A stretch of 64,000 bases of DNA from Minisyncoccota bacterium (GTDB lineage Bacteria; Patescibacteriota; Minisyncoccia; Phycocordibacterales; UBA9973). The position numbers and the translations under genes were made by a program. Below the pieces are notes generated by a model that saw nothing but the letters and a program-made list of their open reading frames with translations, made no database searches and had not been told where the DNA came from. Location of the stretch: contig JBAYHY010000003.1 in the NCBI GenBank assembly GCA_041665885.1, positions 4,529 through 68,528 on the forward strand, in the 5' to 3' direction. How positions within the stretch are numbered: position 1 is the stretch's first letter; the number at the start of each line of letters is the position of its first letter. Positions 7,162-49,135 of this stretch are shown piece after piece.

Positions 7162-7200
7162 ATTTCTAATAATACACCAAATTATGCTAATATAAAATAG

Positions 7201-7644
7201 ATGAAAAAAGTTTCCAAAAATATTAAAGAAACGACAGAAATAGCAAAAACTTTTTTGGATAAAATCCTAAAAGATAAAAAAAACACAGAAAAGGCCACCA
7301 TTGTATGCCTTTCCGGCAATTTGGGCGCTGGCAAAACTGCATTTACCCAGGGCGTGGCAAAACACTTGGGTGTCAAAAGCAAGGTCGTGAGTCCTACTTT
7401 TGTAATATATAAAAAGTACCCGCTTAAAAACAAAAAACATAAATATTTATTTCATTTGGACGCGTATCGTCTTAAAAATGAAAAAGAATTATTGCATTTG
7501 GATTGGAATAAAATTGTTAGCGACAACGAAAATCTCGTAATCGTCGAATGGCCCGAGAATGTAAAAAAAGTTATTCCCAAGTATGCAAAATATATTTACA
7601 TATCAAACGACAAGAATGATTCAAGAATTTTGGAACTTAAATGA
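7201..7644 (+). CDS. tsaE: tRNA threonylcarbamoyladenosine biosynthesis ATPase TsaE
   Basis: P-loop LSGNLGAGKT and conserved VVSPTF motif of TsaE/YjeE. Confidence 0.85.
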   Translation: MKKVSKNIKETTEIAKTFLDKILKDKKNTEKATIVCLSGNLGAGKTAFTQGVAKHLGVKSKVVSPTFVIYKKYPLKNKKHKYLFHLDAYRLKNEKELLHLDWNKIVSDNENLVIVEWPENVKKVIPKYAKYIYISNDKNDSRILELK

Positions 7645-37047: not shown

Positions 37048-37656
37048 ATGAAATACGGAGAATTGAATCTCGGTCAGATCGAAGCGGTTGTAAACAAACT
37101 CGGCGGCATGGAGGGAGTCAACCGATTCCTCCGAGATGAACTGATGGTTTCTGAACCAGCTCACCGTTTTCGTGTGGAGAATGGTGTCATCTACCTGTCC
37201 GTCACTTCCGACGGTACCACTGGCCCAGAGTGGACCAAGCGTCTCGAGAAGAAAGGGTATCGTCTCGGCGACTACGCCAAGCAGATCCTTTGCTCGAAGG
37301 ACTTCAAGCCCACCAAGGACGTCACCACCAAGATTGCTATCCTGAAAGGGACGCTCTTCTCGGACGAAGACCGCATCACAGAGAAGATTCGCACCGAAGC
37401 CGCCAAGCGGAACCTCACGAAACCGAACGCCGAAGTGGCTTGCCTCATCCGGGAGAACTTCTCGGACGAAGAGCTCGAAGCCATGGGTCTCATTTGGGTC
37501 GTCATCATGCACGAACCCATCAAGGATTCCGATGGCGACCCGCGTCTCCTCGACGCGGGCCGCGATGTCGAGGGCGGGTGGCTCGACGCCAATTACGACT
37601 ACCCTGTCAGCAGGTGGGCTCGTGACGATGGTTTCGCTTTCGTTTCGCAAGCGTAG
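37048..37656 (+). CDS. DGR target (variable) protein, GC-rich; C-terminal 42 codons form the variable repeat
   Basis: C-terminus DSDGDPRLLDAGRDVEGGWLDANYDYPVSRWARDDGFAFVSQA is the diversified counterpart of the Asn-rich TR-encoded peptide. NxxNPDNRxNxxGFR-like ending resembles C-type-lectin-fold DGR variable regions. Confidence 0.85.
   Translation: MKYGELNLGQIEAVVNKLGGMEGVNRFLRDELMVSEPAHRFRVENGVIYLSVTSDGTTGPEWTKRLEKKGYRLGDYAKQILCSKDFKPTKDVTTKIAILKGTLFSDEDRITEKIRTEAAKRNLTKPNAEVACLIRENFSDEELEAMGLIWVVIMHEPIKDSDGDPRLLDAGRDVEGGWLDANYDYPVSRWARDDGFAFVSQA
37527..37651 (+). repeat. DGR variable repeat (VR) at the 3' end of the target gene
   Basis: 125 nt aligned base-for-base with TR 37989..38113: 110 identities, 15 mismatches, every mismatch an A in TR (e.g. 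aac/gac, aat/cgt, aac/ggc, gac/gtc, aac/tac, aat/gct). Identical ~40-nt 3' segment ggtttcgctttcgtttcgcaag (IMH-like). Confidence 0.9.
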
Positions 37657-37707: not shown

Positions 37708-37740
37708 GGCCCCCGAACTTTGTTCGGGGGCCATTTTCAT
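37708..37740 (+). terminator. GC hairpin + T-run immediately downstream of VR (terminator and candidate DGR cis hairpin)
   Basis: GGCCCCCGAAC-ttt-GTTCGGGGGCC followed by ATTTTCATTTT. Confidence 0.7.
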
Positions 37741-37988
37741 TTTGTCTTGAAGATTTGTTATACTGAAAATGGTAATAGGTGAATATGTGGGAAATTACGG
37801 TTTCCCGCCACCGAATCCAGTATCCATGCGCCCGGAGTATCCGCGATTATAATTTCGGATAGAGTGGTGCATGCAGAAACTTCAAAAAAGAAGATACTTG
37901 GCACGAAATATTAGGGCATTACGATGCCGAATACGATACAGCTTTGAGAGAATTCAAGGAGCAGTGGCATGGATGATATTTCGTGCAT

Positions 37989-38113
37989 TTCCGATGGCAA
38001 CCCGAATCTCCTCAACGCGAACCGCAATGACGAGGGCAGGTGGCTCAACGCCAATTACGACAACCCTGACAACAGGTGGAATCGTGACGATGGTTTCGCT
38101 TTCGTTTCGCAAG
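37989..38113 (+). repeat. DGR template repeat (TR), adenine-rich (encodes an Asn-rich frame)
   Basis: Non-coding copy of VR. In the VR frame it reads SDGNPNLLNANRNDEGRWLNANYDNPDNRWNRDDGFAFVSQ; AAC/AAT at every diversified codon. Sits between target gene and avd. Confidence 0.9.
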
Positions 38114-38118
38114 TTTTT

Positions 38119-38484
38119 TCATTTCTCTCTCGCTTTTACGGCGGGAGAGTTTTGTTTTTGGAGTTGTCCATTCCAACCCCCGAGCATTTTTCCAATTTCC
38201 TCTATTTTTACAGACAGAGCAATATATTTTTTATCGTCTATTGATTTTGCTTCCCACAGCACCATCAAAAGTATTTTCAAGGTATCTATTTTTCTAATTG
38301 CCAACCGAACCCACGGGCTTTTTTCTTCCCGAGACAAAAAAGTAGCGGTAGAAATTGCTTCAATAATTTCAATAAACAAAATATCTATCTTTTGTCCGAG
38401 GGAGTATTTATGTATTTTAGGCAAAGTTTGGTAAAAAGTAATCCAAATTAGATAACAGCTCTTAACTTTTGCCAGTACTGGCAA
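38119..38484 (-). CDS. avd: Avd-like DGR accessory variability determinant (four-helix-bundle protein)
   Basis: 121-aa basic helical protein; YSLGQKIDILFIEIIEAISTA...KIEEIGKMLGGW resembles Avd/four-helix-bundle family. Sits between TR and RT. Confidence 0.75.
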   Translation of the reverse strand: MPVLAKVKSCYLIWITFYQTLPKIHKYSLGQKIDILFIEIIEAISTATFLSREEKSPWVRLAIRKIDTLKILLMVLWEAKSIDDKKYIALSVKIEEIGKMLGGWNGQLQKQNSPAVKAREK

Positions 38485-38502
38485 AAGTTGGGGGGGGGGG
38501 GG
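38471..38502. promoter_or_regulatory. 12-nt perfect palindrome GCCAGTACTGGC followed by a 13-G homopolymer in the avd/RT divergent intergenic region
   Basis: Read directly: ttttGCCAGTACTGGCaaaagttGGGGGGGGGGGGGtact, between avd start (38484, minus) and RT start (38519). Confidence 0.6.
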
Positions 38503-38518
38503 TACTATTATAAATACT

Positions 38519-39550
38519 ATGTCCCATATTCAATTTATTCATACTTACGATACTATCACTTCTATTGAAAATTTGCTTCTGGCGTGGAAAGAATTTATTC
38601 TTGGCAAGAAGAATCGTAAAGATGTGCAAGAGTTTGAAAGGAATTTAATGACTAACATTATTCTGCTGCATCAAGACTTAGTAAATAAAACATACAAACA
38701 TTCTCAATATGAAGCATTTAATATTTCTGATCCGAAACCGCGGAATATTCACAAGGCGAAAGTGCGAGATAGGTTACTGCATCACGCTATTTGTCGAGTG
38801 CTTTATCTGTTTTTTGATAGAACATTTATTACCGACTCCTATTCGTGCAGAGTAAACAAAGGAACCCATAAAGCGATAAATAGGTTTAGAAAGTTTGCTT
38901 ATCAGGCATCAAAAAACCATACGAAAACGGTTTGGGTTTTAAAAGGAGATATAAAAAAGTTTTTTGCTAACATTAACCACAATATTTTAAAATCAATTCT
39001 TAAAGAACACATACAGGACAAAAATATTTTATGGCTTTTGTTTCAAATTGTAGATAGTTTTTATACTCAAAATTCAATCTACGCTATAGCGGAGATAAAA
39101 AAAGGTCTTCCTTTGGGTAATTTAACTTCGCAACTGCTGGTAAATATTTATATGAATGAATTTGACCAATTTATGAAACATAAAATTAAGGCGAAATATT
39201 ATATTCGTTATGCGGACGATTTTGTAATTTTATCTAGTGACAAAAAATGGCTGATAAATATATTGCCTCAAATAAAAGATTTTCTAGAAAACGAACTCAA
39301 GCTTTCTTTGCATCCCACAAAACTATCAATAAGCACGGTTGCCTCGGGCGTAGATTTTCTGGGTTGGGTTTTGTTTCCAGACCATAGAGTGGTTAGAACT
39401 ATTACCAAACAAAGAATGTTTAGGGGCATAAAAAAGAAACAAGGAAATTTTGAAACGGTGCAATCCTACCTAGGGTTACTTAGTCATGGTAATGCAAGGG
39501 GGCTAGAATGGAAAGTCAGGAACGATTCAGGGTTTAGTAGTGAAATTTGA
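38519..39550 (+). CDS. DGR-type reverse transcriptase
   Basis: RT motifs including YIRYADDFVIL (YxDD box) and the DGR-specific GLPLGNLTSQLLVNIYM (GxxxSQ in place of the QGxxxSP of group II/retron RTs). 343 aa. Confidence 0.9.
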   Translation: MSHIQFIHTYDTITSIENLLLAWKEFILGKKNRKDVQEFERNLMTNIILLHQDLVNKTYKHSQYEAFNISDPKPRNIHKAKVRDRLLHHAICRVLYLFFDRTFITDSYSCRVNKGTHKAINRFRKFAYQASKNHTKTVWVLKGDIKKFFANINHNILKSILKEHIQDKNILWLLFQIVDSFYTQNSIYAIAEIKKGLPLGNLTSQLLVNIYMNEFDQFMKHKIKAKYYIRYADDFVILSSDKKWLINILPQIKDFLENELKLSLHPTKLSISTVASGVDFLGWVLFPDHRVVRTITKQRMFRGIKKKQGNFETVQSYLGLLSHGNARGLEWKVRNDSGFSSEI

Positions 39551-44120: not shown

Positions 44121-44142
44121 AATTTATGCTATTATAACACAT

Positions 44143-44730
44143 ATGAAATCACAGACTTTAGTATTTTTTGGAATAGTTGGTTCTGGGAAGGGAACTCAAG
44201 TAGAACTTTTGACCAATTATCTCAAGGATAAGGACAACAAAGATATATTATATGCAGGCACTGGAGAAGAGTTTAGAAAATTAATCGGCACAGAAAGCTA
44301 TACGGCTCGCCGGGTAAGAGATTCAATTTTAAAAGGGGAACTCCAACCTGATTTTTTGACCACCACACTTTTTACCAATACCCTTATTCATTCCCTGGGG
44401 GAGGAGGAACATTTAATCGCAGATGGTTACCCTAGAACAGTAGCTCAGGCAGAGAGTTTCGATTTGATGATGAAGTTCTTCAGGCGAGACAAAATAAAAA
44501 TTATTTACATTAAAATTAGCGAAGAAGAAGCCCTCAAGCGTAATTTGTTGCGAGGTAGGGAAGATGACACAGAGGGCGGCATTGCCAGAAGAATTGAAGA
44601 ATATAAAAACAATGTTATTCCGGCGATGGATTATTTCAAAGACAGGGACGGTTATGAAATTTGCACAGTGAACGGAGAACAGAGCAGGGAGGATGTTTAT
44701 AAGGATATGATTAAGGCCCTAGGATTTTAA
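44143..44730 (+). CDS. adk: adenylate kinase
   Basis: FFGIVGSGKGTQ P-loop, NMP-binding and LID regions; start set at ATG 44143. Confidence 0.85.
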   Translation: MKSQTLVFFGIVGSGKGTQVELLTNYLKDKDNKDILYAGTGEEFRKLIGTESYTARRVRDSILKGELQPDFLTTTLFTNTLIHSLGEEEHLIADGYPRTVAQAESFDLMMKFFRRDKIKIIYIKISEEEALKRNLLRGREDDTEGGIARRIEEYKNNVIPAMDYFKDRDGYEICTVNGEQSREDVYKDMIKALGF

Positions 44731-46221: not shown

Positions 46222-46366
46222 ACTTTTTTTGGTACGGATTTTTTGAAAACTAAAATGTAACAATATCTCGAAAGAAATTTTTGCGCCTTCGCCCTCGGAG
46301 ACATAAGGGCAGGGAACCCACGACGCTTAAAATTCCTTCCGAGATATTTGTGTTATAATATAGCAA

Positions 46367-49135
46367 ATGGAACCGTCATTCTTTAAAGAAATGCCGAAGT
46401 TCAAGAGTCCTGAAGAGGAGCTAGATTATTTGCGTGCGCACGTGAAGGCCCGAGAGGAAGAATTGATCAAAGCAGGGCATATAGAGCACGCAGGAGAGCA
46501 TGCGGCGAAAGACGTAATTATAGAATATAAAAAGATTCCAGTCGAAAACGCAGTTCACAAAGACAATCTTGTTAGCAAAAAGGAAGTTGAGGGAATTGTT
46601 CTTCAACTTAAACCGGAAATGCACGATACCGTTATGGAAGAACTCTTGGGTATTGTTATTACCAAGGGAATCAGAAATGCGCTTTCGGTGGTAGAAGCAA
46701 TGAACAATCCACACGTGGATGATGATTTTCATAGGATTCTCATTCAATATATAAAGACCGGCCAGGTAATTTCTGATTATAAAGAGGGCACTCCTTTTTA
46801 CAAATCCCTCAACATGACGCTTTTCGAAATAACCCTACCACCACCCCAGGACGAAGCAGATAAATCAAAAGGTTTCAAGGAATTCATCGGCGCGATGGAG
46901 CAATTTTACGCCGGGATGCAATCTATCGGGGAAGATCGATATAACGAGAAAGAAAATTATTTTACCTTAGAAGTGGCTCTTTCGAATGAGAGCGATGAGG
47001 TGGTGATATATGCAGCAATTCCAAATAAATATATTTCACTTTTTGAAAAACAAGTTCTGGCATTTTATCATGATGCGAAGGTCCGCGAGGTGGCGGATGA
47101 TTACAATATCTTTAACGAAAAAGGGAGAGCGGCAGGCGCGTACGCGAGTTTTTCTGAACGAGCCGTGTTGCCGATTAAAACTTACGACAATATCGAGCAC
47201 GACCCGATGAATCCGATACTGAATGTTTTTTCAAAATTGAAAACCGCAGGCGAAGGAGCTGCGATTCAGCTAGTGATAGCACCGGCCGGTGATAAATTTA
47301 TAAATGAGTTTCATCATATTTTAGATGACGTGAAGGATGGCACCTCCGTAAAACACGCTGCGGATAATTTTTATAAATTCAATAAGGCTGTAATGAAGGT
47401 CGGCAAGGAGTTGCTTTTTGGCACAAAAGAAAAAGAGGAAGGGGAAAAGAAAGAAAAATACATGAAGGGAAGAAGGGCGGTAGATGAGGGGGCGGCAGAA
47501 AAGATAGGAAATAAAATCAAAAGTTCTATCATGAAAGCGAATATTCGGGTAATTGCTTCCGGAGAGAATCAGGAAAGAGCCGAGGCAATATTAAAAGAGA
47601 TTGAATCTTCCTTTAATCAATTTTCCGAGGCGGCTAGTAATTCTTTTGTGTTTGAGCGGGTTTCTGGGGGCGAATTAAAAAAACTTTTTCATGATTTTTC
47701 TTATCGCACGTTTTCTCCCGATAAAACTTTGCCGATGAATTTGAAAGAACTCTCTTCGGTGTTTCATTTTCCCGTTGGTATTGGTGGTCAGCCACAATTG
47801 AAAGAGGCAAGGGCTGGTATTGCGCCCGCCCCCATCGAGATGGCGAACGAAGGAATAATTTTAGGAGTAAATAGTTATCGAGGAAAAGATACCGAAATTC
47901 ATATGGCCCGCGAGGATCGTATGAGACATTTCTATGTTATTGGGCAAACCGGAACAGGTAAAACGAATATTATGCTCAACATGATAACTCAGGATATCAA
48001 AAATGGAGATGGATGTTGTTATATTGATCCGCACGGAACAGATATCCAAACTATTTTATCTCGCATCCCGAAGGAACGCATTGAGGACGTTATTTACTTT
48101 GATCCAGCTTATACGGCGCGACCAATGGGATTAAACATGCTCGAGTATGATCCGAAATATCCGGAGCAAAAAACTTTTGTGGTAAATGAAATGATGGGTA
48201 TTTTCAACAAGCTTTTCGACATGAAGGTGGGGGGAGGAGCGATGTTTGAACAATATTTTAGGAATAGTGCTTTTCTGGTGATGGAGGACCCCGAGTCCGG
48301 TTCGACCTTGCTCGAAATTACCCGCGTGCTGGCGGATAAAAAATTCCGCGATTATAAAATCTCTAAATGCAAAAACCCAATCATTAAACAATTCTGGGTT
48401 TCCGCTGAGCAGACGACGGGGGATCAATCCCTGGCGAACTTTGTACCATATATTTCTTCTAAGTTTGACAACTTCATATCGAACGACATTATGCGTCCGG
48501 TAGTCCTTCAACAAAATTCCGTTTTCAATTTCCGCAAGATTATGGATGAGAAGAAAATTCTTTTGGTGAATCTTTCTAAGGGAAGACTCGGGGACATCAA
48601 TGCCAACCTAATCGGTCTCGTGCTTGTCGGTAAAATCCAAATGGCGGCGCTTTCACGCGTAGATATGTTTGGCAAACCGATGAATGATTTTTATCTTTAT
48701 ATCGACGAGTTCCAAAATGTAACCACGGATTCTATCGCCTCCATTTTGTCTGAAGCTCGCAAATATAGACTTTCATTAAATATTGCGCATCAATACATAA
48801 CCCAGCTTGAAGAAAATATCAAAAATGCTGTTTTTGGCAACGTCGGTACTATGGCAGTGTTTCGTGTAGGCACCGAGGATGCCGCTTTTTTAGAACCAAA
48901 ATTTAAACCCCAATTTACTGCACAGGATATTACCAAGCTTGATAATTATAATGCCTATATGAGCATGCTTGTTAACGGTCAACCAACTAAGCCATTTAAC
49001 TTACGTGCGTTGGCTCCAGAAAAAGGTAATCCGGAAATTGTAGACAGCCTAAAAGAACTTTCATATATTAAATTCGGCCGAGATCGCGAAGAAGTGGAGA
49101 ATGAAATCATGGACAGATATAAGACTATGGAATAA
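46367..49135 (+). CDS. large P-loop NTPase, DUF87 / TraD-VirD4-like (type IV secretion coupling-protein-like)
   Basis: 922 aa; Walker A FYVIGQTGTGKTN, Walker-B-like LYIDEFQNV, HQY motif. Confidence 0.5.
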   Translation: MEPSFFKEMPKFKSPEEELDYLRAHVKAREEELIKAGHIEHAGEHAAKDVIIEYKKIPVENAVHKDNLVSKKEVEGIVLQLKPEMHDTVMEELLGIVITKGIRNALSVVEAMNNPHVDDDFHRILIQYIKTGQVISDYKEGTPFYKSLNMTLFEITLPPPQDEADKSKGFKEFIGAMEQFYAGMQSIGEDRYNEKENYFTLEVALSNESDEVVIYAAIPNKYISLFEKQVLAFYHDAKVREVADDYNIFNEKGRAAGAYASFSERAVLPIKTYDNIEHDPMNPILNVFSKLKTAGEGAAIQLVIAPAGDKFINEFHHILDDVKDGTSVKHAADNFYKFNKAVMKVGKELLFGTKEKEEGEKKEKYMKGRRAVDEGAAEKIGNKIKSSIMKANIRVIASGENQERAEAILKEIESSFNQFSEAASNSFVFERVSGGELKKLFHDFSYRTFSPDKTLPMNLKELSSVFHFPVGIGGQPQLKEARAGIAPAPIEMANEGIILGVNSYRGKDTEIHMAREDRMRHFYVIGQTGTGKTNIMLNMITQDIKNGDGCCYIDPHGTDIQTILSRIPKERIEDVIYFDPAYTARPMGLNMLEYDPKYPEQKTFVVNEMMGIFNKLFDMKVGGGAMFEQYFRNSAFLVMEDPESGSTLLEITRVLADKKFRDYKISKCKNPIIKQFWVSAEQTTGDQSLANFVPYISSKFDNFISNDIMRPVVLQQNSVFNFRKIMDEKKILLVNLSKGRLGDINANLIGLVLVGKIQMAALSRVDMFGKPMNDFYLYIDEFQNVTTDSIASILSEARKYRLSLNIAHQYITQLEENIKNAVFGNVGTMAVFRVGTEDAAFLEPKFKPQFTAQDITKLDNYNAYMSMLVNGQPTKPFNLRALAPEKGNPEIVDSLKELSYIKFGRDREEVENEIMDRYKTME

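Follow-up and report, generated by a model that had tools for sequence, protein, structure and literature searches.

A hypermutable simple sequence repeat between the divergent avd and reverse transcriptase genes of a patescibacterial retroelement, and its probable role as a reading-frame switch of avd

The sequence analysed in the current study, a stretch of 64,000 nucleotides (nt) from a Minisyncoccota bacterium (GenBank assembly GCA_041665885.1, contig JBAYHY010000003.1, positions 4,529 to 68,528), carries a diversity-generating retroelement (DGR) in which a run of 13 consecutive G residues (G13) lies between the accessory gene avd and the reverse transcriptase (RT) gene. The whole stretch is referred to here as the window, and coordinates are counted from its first base (Table 1). 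DGRs are unusually abundant in genomes of the Candidate Phyla Radiation (CPR), or Patescibacteria, and to our knowledge the control of their mutagenesis in these organisms has not been established. The present element sits in a ribosomal-protein operon, between rplE and rpsN. Its RT gene (RVT_1 domain) is accompanied by avd (bAvd domain), its template repeat (TR) and variable repeat (VR) differ at 15 positions, every one of which is an adenine in TR, and the target gene has VR at its 3' end. With TR, inverted avd and RT in this order, the element has architecture B3, which accounts for 90% of CPR DGRs according to the survey by Wu et al. (2018; PMC5758913).

The tract between avd and RT

The avd open reading frame (ORF) and the RT gene are divergently oriented, with the G run and a palindrome between them. 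From nt 38464 to nt 38518 the order is AACTTTTGCCAGTACTGGCAAAAGTT, G13, TACTATTATAAATACT, after which the RT ATG follows at nt 38519. The initial annotation had marked nt 38471–38518 as containing a G homopolymer and a perfect 12-nt palindrome in a divergent avd/RT setting. The 13 consecutive G residues do lie within this interval and the two genes do diverge around it, while the palindrome, GCCAGTACTGGC (nt 38471–38482), was correctly read but forms only the middle of a larger perfect palindrome, 26 nt long, which lies immediately next to the G run. Long G/C tracts were also said to be rare in this genome, and in the window this is borne out: apart from G13, no G or C run in the 64 kb exceeds 9, the next longest being two G9 and one C7, and the calculated expectation for a run like G13, G making up 22% of bases, is ~4e-4. 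A metagenome contig from the Joint Genome Institute (JGI; L001) carries the same G13, as does a separate Logan assembly (L002, SRR6484324), although the samples are possibly the same.

The palindrome is likewise exceptional in length, as only two perfect palindromes with 13-nt arms occur in the window and the longest arm in 50 shuffles did not exceed 11. It is composed of a 5-nt linker, a TTG codon and codons for PVLAKV, and in avd mRNA it would form an 11-bp hairpin immediately 3' of the C13 that corresponds to the G run on the avd sense strand.

Protein-guided scans recovered 160 related loci, nearly all labelled Patescibacteria or CPR, with RT identities of 58–74%. The best match to the window locus in the metagenome scan was 74% identical, i.e. 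the relatives are not near-identical strains of this genome. A simple sequence repeat (SSR) was found between the divergent avd and RT genes in 142 of 161 loci scored by script, and in nine more where the contig ended or the script had missed it; the tract is lost or interrupted in only about five loci (L084/85, L028, L073, L144). The related DGRs form ~94 sequence clusters, and in the 949 kb of sequence that was retrieved, 127 of the 133 runs of at least 8 nt fall at the avd-RT junction.

Both the length and the unit of the repeat vary between loci. Poly-G runs range from G7 to G14, with a mode of 9–10, and elsewhere the same position is occupied by (TTGG)3.5-12.75, (ATTG)10, (TGGC)6.5-8, (CTGG)9, (TG)13, (TTCG)9, (AG)7-8 (in L080), (CT)7-8 (in L068) or C9G9. 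The last of these, found at the junctions of L012 and L103, is a self-complementary block, C9 then G9, in place of a plain G run. A single cluster at 85% nucleotide identity mixes poly-G, (TTGG)n, (ATTG)n and (TTCG)n, and its (TTGG) repeats span 3.5–12.75 units. Comparison of tract length among related assemblies revealed three pairs of loci that are identical save for one G: L091/L004 (4404 nt, G9/G8), L110/L016 (2662 nt, G11/G10) and L141/L146 (1896 nt, G10/G9). Repeat number is polymorphic, then, on an otherwise invariant background, as seen in these pairs and also in eight clusters of mixed reading frame (see below), and the tracts are pure and at or above the length at which such repeats are mutable (some 7 nt for a homopolymer and several units for a tetranucleotide repeat).

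Several contigs start exactly at the tract (L025, L131, L151, L156), and another, L101, starts 7 nt before it. These contig ends are suggestive, being consistent with breaks caused by length heterogeneity or with poor sequencing through poly-G. The contig L025 starts with G26, which may be an artefactual extension.

Since a pure tract has long been retained while its length and unit turn over fast, it is very probably a conserved, selected and hypermutable repeat; the same combination disfavours a sequence-specific motif or an artefact. The initial annotation had proposed a slipped-strand mispairing switch, and this proposal is strengthened by the preservation of the position in ~94 clusters together with the variation of length and unit among close relatives.

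The start of avd and its reading frame

In the window, TTG at nt 38484 is the sole canonical start codon of the avd ORF 3' of the tract. Codon usage at the 5' end of RT points to a start on the other side of it. RT codon 8 (a conserved His) is CAT in 88 loci and CAC in 2, as against 1069:613 elsewhere in the same RT genes (Fisher p ~1e-14), and at cluster level the ratio is 68:2. The third base is T in 68 of 71 cases at codon 11 and in 86 of 88 at codon 12, compared with ~64–70% elsewhere, and codon 13 (Ile) is ATC in 94 of 100, whereas elsewhere ATT is the commoner codon (62% of ATT plus ATC). Read on the avd strand, the constrained synonymous bases of RT codons 8–14 spell TGnTAnnnT-N7-ATG, with the hexamer TAnnnT intact in 82 loci and the TG in 74, out of 88. 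Such asymmetric conservation fits an extended -10 element, not a palindrome, followed by a start codon antisense to RT codon 8.

In the window, TGnTAnnnT-N7-ATG occurs 6 times against 1.7 expected, a number reached in none of 100 shuffles. Of the five matches other than that of avd, four fall precisely where TsaE, ribosomal protein L28, adenylate kinase and a TraG/VirD4-like ATPase begin, and leaderless genes with an extended -10 element therefore seem to be common in this genome.

The reading frame that begins at the antisense ATG is kept open. It runs uninterrupted as far as the tract and across it in 88 of 88 loci. Codons of the RT frame that would place a stop on the opposite strand (TCA, TTA, CTA) are entirely missing from the 104 Ser/Leu-type codons of this stretch, compared with 24.4 expected from gene-body usage (P ~7e-13). 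Every repeat unit is free of stops in all frames on the avd strand, and (ATTG)n carries TGA on the RT strand. A conserved motif, (L/I)LP(V/L)L, stands at the N-terminus of Avd. The segment that separates it from the tract lacks any ATG, GTG or TTG at 62 of 119 unique junctions, so avd must start upstream of the tract in those loci. The tract stands 5–15 nt from this motif in most loci, and up to 26 nt away in a few; it lies anywhere from 4 to 60 nt from the RT start.

It is most likely, then, that avd has a leaderless mRNA, with its promoter and start codon placed antisense within RT codons 8–14, a dense dual coding within the RT gene. With the avd start antisense in RT codon 8, the repeat would lie inside a translated leader of avd, and the first 8 codons of RT overlap this leader in antisense. 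The initial description of the region as a control region is correct in that the tract stands between divergent genes; it is not, however, a shared intergenic region, as the 5' ends of avd and RT overlap. If the slippery repeat does gate Avd, a wrong start is systematically assigned to the avd genes of this clade.

Lying between the conserved, putatively leaderless ATG and the Avd domain, the tract would by its length fix the reading frame of avd. In the window, the leader ORF reads MNKLNMGHSIYNSTPPPPTFASTGKS and ends as a 26-aa peptide; C12 or C15 would instead yield MNKLNMGHSIYNSTPPP(P)QLLPVLAKVK..., i.e. full-length Avd. Since C13 places the leader +1 out of frame, avd in this window is predicted to be off or only leaky. 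Among the 88 loci with a promoter-linked ATG, Avd is in frame with that ATG in 19, +1 in 44 and -1 in 25. Counted by cluster (n = 68), the figures are 14, 35 and 19, with more than one state in eight clusters, and the pairs described above can differ in state: L091 (G9) is in frame while its twin, L004 (G8), is not.

These data suggest the following sequence of events. A leaderless avd mRNA would be transcribed from the extended -10 element TGATAGTAT, with the ATG 7 nt downstream, both antisense in RT codons 8–14. Translation would proceed through ~13 codons from the ATG, then through the prolines of the tract, a short linker and the hairpin, and into the Avd domain. The frame would be fixed by tract length, and slipped-strand mispairing during replication, by adding or removing units, would make lineages alternate between producing full-length Avd and lacking it. 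DGR cDNA synthesis depends on Avd, as established in the Bordetella phage system and assumed for the present DGR, and for this reason the flip should gate mutagenic homing. That transcription starts there, that the tract is translated and that DGR mutagenesis is affected are inferences from the sequence. With moderate confidence, the tract is considered to act mainly through the avd reading frame, as a phase switch of the frameshift type. The fuller statement, that hypermutation by the TR-(avd)-RT DGRs of this clade is gated by a contingency repeat in an avd leader whose transcription and translation signals lie antisense within RT codons 1–14, is one for which belief and doubt are evenly balanced.

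Several observations weigh against this interpretation. In 31 loci lacking the His8 codon, a comparable TAnnnT-N(6-8)-ATG was found in only 14. A TTG is present just 3' of the tract in about half of the loci, the window included, and is a possible alternative start; leaky or alternative initiation of avd is accordingly possible, and the presence of this TTG showed no correlation with frame state. The one-G differences among runs of G8–G11 are possibly consensus errors, which does not apply to the tetranucleotide differences, and in the counts across loci shared ancestry has been only partly corrected for. An enrichment of in-frame alleles was looked for and not found, the in-frame share being 34% with any upstream ATG and 22% with the promoter-linked ATG, the latter at or below the one-third expected by chance, so that assembled alleles do not usually encode the fusion. 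The frames are also skewed towards +1 (50%, versus 28% for -1 and 22% in frame; hand-calculated chi-square for 14/35/19 clusters, p ~0.005, uncorrected for phylogeny). This excess could reflect selection for an element that is mostly off, a mutational bias, or some +1 slippage on CCC-C.

Table 1. Coordinates of the DGR features and of the start motif elsewhere in the window
Feature	Position (nt)	Strand	Remarks
Target gene	37048–37656	plus	VR at its 3' end
VR	37527–37651	plus	repeat comparison with TR
TR	37989–38113	plus	repeat comparison with VR
bAvd (PF22296) ORF, Avd domain	38119–38484	minus	domain match, E 2e-10
Intrinsic terminator-like hairpin and T run	38125–38159	plus	directly 3' of TR, within the avd 3' end
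Putative avd leader ORF, present frame, MNKLNMGHSIYNSTPPPPTFASTGKS	38462–38542	minus	stop at 38464–38462; +1 out of frame with avd
Perfect 26-nt palindrome, AACTTTTGCCAGTACTGGCAAAAGTT	38464–38489	minus	directly abuts the G run
Simple-sequence tract, G13 (plus strand) or C13 (avd sense strand, poly-proline)	38490–38502	minus	direct sequence
-10-like hexamers TACTAT, TATTAT	38503–38511	plus	abut the tract; TATTAT 7 nt before the RT ATG
RVT_1 DGR reverse transcriptase	38519–39550	plus	domain match, E 1e-26
Putative leaderless avd start codon, ATG	38540–38542	minus	antisense to RT His8 (CAT)
Putative extended -10 element, TGATAGTAT	38550–38558	minus	antisense in RT codons 11–14; read 38558–38550, then CGTAAGT, then ATG (38542–38540); ends 7 nt before the ATG
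TGnTAnnnT-N7-ATG at tsaE	7185–7203
TGnTAnnnT-N7-ATG at rpmB (L28)	23283–23301	minus
TGnTAnnnT-N7-ATG at adk	44127–44145
TGnTAnnnT-N7-ATG at the TraG/VirD4-like gene	46351–46369

Alternative explanations for the tract and the palindrome

The palindrome had been thought to look like an operator, a suggestion that did not survive comparison with the relatives. It is perfect only in the window and in L040; L087 and L107 keep an 11-bp stem with an altered centre, and in the other relatives the arms and register differ. The sequence consists of the linker and the first 7 Avd codons (LPVLAKV), and no second copy of it is present in the window, even with 3 mismatches allowed, so that it is neither conserved among homologues nor repeated in the window in the manner of an operator. 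What does recur in relatives is only a tendency to form a hairpin beside the tract. Over 117 unique junctions, the 36 nt beside the tract have a mean minimum free energy of -5.5 kcal/mol, compared with -3.9 for shuffles and -2.4 for an internal avd control (p ~4e-7 and 9e-10, uncorrected for shared ancestry). Many relatives have a weak hairpin or none, and linker lengths and registers are too varied for a single alignment. It is possible that the hairpin accompanies the slippery tract, e.g. by aiding slippage, pausing or mRNA stability.

The likeliest of the rivals to a reading-frame switch places the effect on the other gene. On the RT side, the -10-like hexamers abut the tract, TATTAT being a possible leaderless RT promoter, and a tract lying between a weak -35 (TGGCAA, in avd codons 1–2) and the RT -10 hexamer would switch RT through its length. 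The spacing TGGCAA-N18-TACTAT in the window is workable, a TAnnnT hexamer stands 7 nt before the RT start, in leaderless geometry, in 30 of 97 relatives, and another promoter of the window (TTGACA-N18-TACACT, nt 25497–25524) has G9 in its spacer. There is, however, no convincing -35, and a consensus promoter scan made no call at the RT upstream site. In a hand tally of ~27 junctions the implied spacer ranged over 14–19 nt, changes in linker length not being offset by the tract, which rules out a constant linker-plus-tract spacing for an RT promoter; tetranucleotide tracts of 15–51 nt are incompatible with a -35/-10 spacer, the upstream regions of RT differ among subfamilies as does the distance given above, and the signals constrained at synonymous sites stand on the avd strand. 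A promoter-spacer switch is for these reasons rather unlikely, and any effect of the tract on RT transcription is secondary and uncertain. Of the phase variation of RT and/or avd put forward in the initial annotation, the on/off idea is supported, with the avd reading frame as the likely target, while an effect on RT is weakly borne out. Programmed recoding would also act on avd, by slippage of the ribosome (tRNA-Pro on CCC-C, +1 or -1) or of RNA polymerase on the C run, aided by the neighbouring hairpin, so that a small and constant share of leader translation would pass into the avd frame and set a low dose of Avd. On a homopolymer of C, tRNA-Pro can slip freely, the hairpin lies directly 3' of the tract in the window and hairpin potential is enriched in relatives, and the +1 state is the commonest (44 of 88 loci, 35 of 68 clusters). 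Against it, the frame offset is not conserved across homologues as a programmed frameshift would demand, but is found as 0, +1 and -1 and flips within eight clusters and between identical strains; tracts of (TTGG)n, (ATTG)n or (TG)n offer the ribosome no slippery site, and the hairpin, as noted, is weak or missing in many relatives. Recoding is an unlikely explanation. Termination-reinitiation coupled to a leader peptide was also considered and rejected, as the leader stop falls 0–130 nt past the tract with no conserved geometry.

Other readings dispense with a switch altogether. CA-rich sequences act as enhancers of leaderless mRNAs, and a C/A-rich, unstructured stretch following a leaderless start could in like manner enhance translation, the variability of the repeat being incidental. 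The avd start does appear to be leaderless, and on the avd strand C, or C and A, predominate in all of the units other than (AG)n of L080 and (CT)n of L068; yet an enhancer would have to keep the frame, and 78% of loci are out of frame, nor does it need a perfectly pure repeat of mutable length, and purity is maintained. A composition-driven leader is therefore very unlikely. A site acting at the level of DNA (an operator or cruciform palindrome, a G-quadruplex, a G run bound by protein, or else a part of the DGR RNA or a homing signal akin to the initiation of mutagenic homing (IMH) element) finds some encouragement in the perfect 26-nt palindrome beside G13, and in the GC-rich stretch with inverted repeat described at the IMH of the Bordetella phage DGR (PMC5758913). 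Set against these are the lack of conservation and of a second copy of the palindrome, and the replacement of the G run by units such as ATTG, TTCG and TG, which are unlikely to form G-quadruplexes; the last possibility can be ruled out on the occurrence of (ATTG)n, (TTCG)n and (TG)n at the tract position. A GC stretch with cruciform of the IMH type would be expected where VR ends on its 3' side, together with an IMH* counterpart at the end of TR, and this arrangement was not found: the tract lies ~840 nt from the end of VR and ~380 nt from the end of TR, no such tract occurs near VR, and the homology of the two repeats ends at nt 37651 and nt 38113 with no G run. Nor can the tract be part of the TR RNA or a spacer-like element of it, in view of the conserved terminator-like element that follows TR (kept in 71 of 104 relatives, see below). 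Taken as a whole, a DNA-level site is highly improbable. An artefact of sequencing or assembly (a two-colour poly-G artefact or a chimeric join) would account for contigs that end exactly in the tract and for the G26 of L025, but is extremely improbable, since unique sequence flanks the tract on both sides, two assemblies agree on it and it is found in well over 100 contigs of many sequencing projects.

Neighbouring features and comparison with known systems

The terminator-like element directly after TR consists of a hairpin, CTCTCTCGC...GCGGGAGAG, followed by TTTTGTTTTT. An element of the form CTCTCC...GGAGAG TTTTGTTTT is present at this position in 71 of 104 relatives, compared with 4 of 104 in a control region. 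The hairpin and T run suggest that the TR RNA ends before the body of avd and the tract; it appears to be a short, separate transcript, of which this element may be the 3' structural end. Upstream of TR are an imperfect palindrome, TATCCGCGATTATAATTTCGGATA (88% complementary; nt 37838–37861, plus strand), which includes TATAAT, and a promoter-like TTGGCA-16-TACGAT (nt 37898–37925, plus strand), both candidate signals for transcription of the TR RNA. About 57 nt past the end of VR is a GC-rich inverted repeat, GGCCCCCGAAC/GTTCGGGGGCC, with a T-rich tail (nt 37708–37732, plus strand), which could be the terminator of the target gene or correspond to the GC-rich inverted repeat found downstream of the IMH in other DGRs.

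The second perfect 26-nt palindrome of the window (nt 24995–25020) and the promoter with G9 in its spacer (nt 25510–25518) flank two small genes inserted between rpsG and fusA. One of these genes (nt 25027–25419) encodes a PaaX_M/Cas2-like domain and the other (nt 25560–25838) is a 92-aa ORF without a Pfam match; the promoter may be a second one under the control of a G tract. The G9 run at nt 22963–22971 forms the stem of a terminator-like hairpin (GGGGGGGGGCTGCAAGCAGCCCTCCC, then a T run). Among the relatives, a second tract of G9–G10 is found ~350 nt after RT in L025 (and also in L121, near nt 1361, and L156, near nt 2880). In L025 it lies inside a protein-kinase-like gene that is split there by a frameshift (ORFs 1076–1414 and 1341–2312), which suggests that more phase-variable genes lie beside these DGRs. 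Taken together with the start motifs described above, such tracts suggest that leaderless genes and G-tract switches belong to the gene regulation of Patescibacteria.

If the gating of Avd by the repeat is true, hypermutation of the target protein would be switched stochastically and heritably in populations, a form of bet-hedging on evolvability, and the DGR would be a two-tier evolvability device in which a stochastic switch is set over a mutator. Most such assembled DGRs would then be one slippage event from the on state. The on/off state could be read from tract length in metagenomic reads and compared with VR diversity, and the regulation of DGRs in uncultured bacteria would become testable with existing public data.

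Repeats that affect transcription are known from porA and opc of Neisseria, where poly-G/C tracts lie in promoter spacers, and from hifA-hifB of Haemophilus influenzae, where (TA)n lies between divergent genes. The present tract shares with these a position between two divergent genes, both of which it may affect. Unlike them, it is probably coding for avd, and it lies outside any well-defined -35/-10 spacer of RT. Programmed frameshift sites, such as those of dnaX, insertion sequence (IS) elements and prfB, comprise a slippery run followed by a 3' stem-loop. In common with these, the homopolymer directly precedes a hairpin and the upstream ORF is out of frame with the downstream domain; the frame offset, unlike theirs, is not conserved and the length of the tract is variable.

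In the literature searched, no report was found in which a DGR is linked to a repeat tract, to phase variation or to a frameshift in Avd, although an earlier mention may exist. In the part of the survey of Wu et al. considered here (PMC5758913), five CPR DGRs are located among ribosomal-protein genes, as is the present one, and the B3 elements have the same gene order and the same inverted avd; that part of the survey mentions no repeat tract, antisense-embedded avd start or phase variation. The contingency loci recently described in phages (bioRxiv 2025, PMC12633550) have in common with the present locus the use of hypermutable repeats for bet-hedging outside the classical pathogens, but involve other genes and elements and have no link to DGRs.

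The closest parallels are with intragenic SSR phase variation, for which poly-G/C tracts of at least 7 nt in genes of Campylobacter jejuni and tetranucleotide repeats in 5' coding regions of H. influenzae are examples (PMC8355987, PMC5084427, PMC11868660). Like the contingency loci known from Neisseria, Haemophilus and Campylobacter, the present locus would have its repeat (a tetranucleotide repeat, or a homopolymer at least 7 nt long) just after the start, with the repeat number setting the frame; length differs between near-identical strains, and purity is kept over long evolution. The hosts, in contrast to those pathogens, are environmental Patescibacteria, and the gene that would be gated is the accessory factor of a mutagenic retroelement rather than a surface or restriction-modification gene. 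The start and promoter would lie antisense in the neighbouring RT gene, the mRNA is probably leaderless, and the switch is here a prediction from sequence. The mechanism looks like classical intragenic SSR phase variation, from which the patescibacterial host, the DGR accessory gene and the antisense leader would set it apart.

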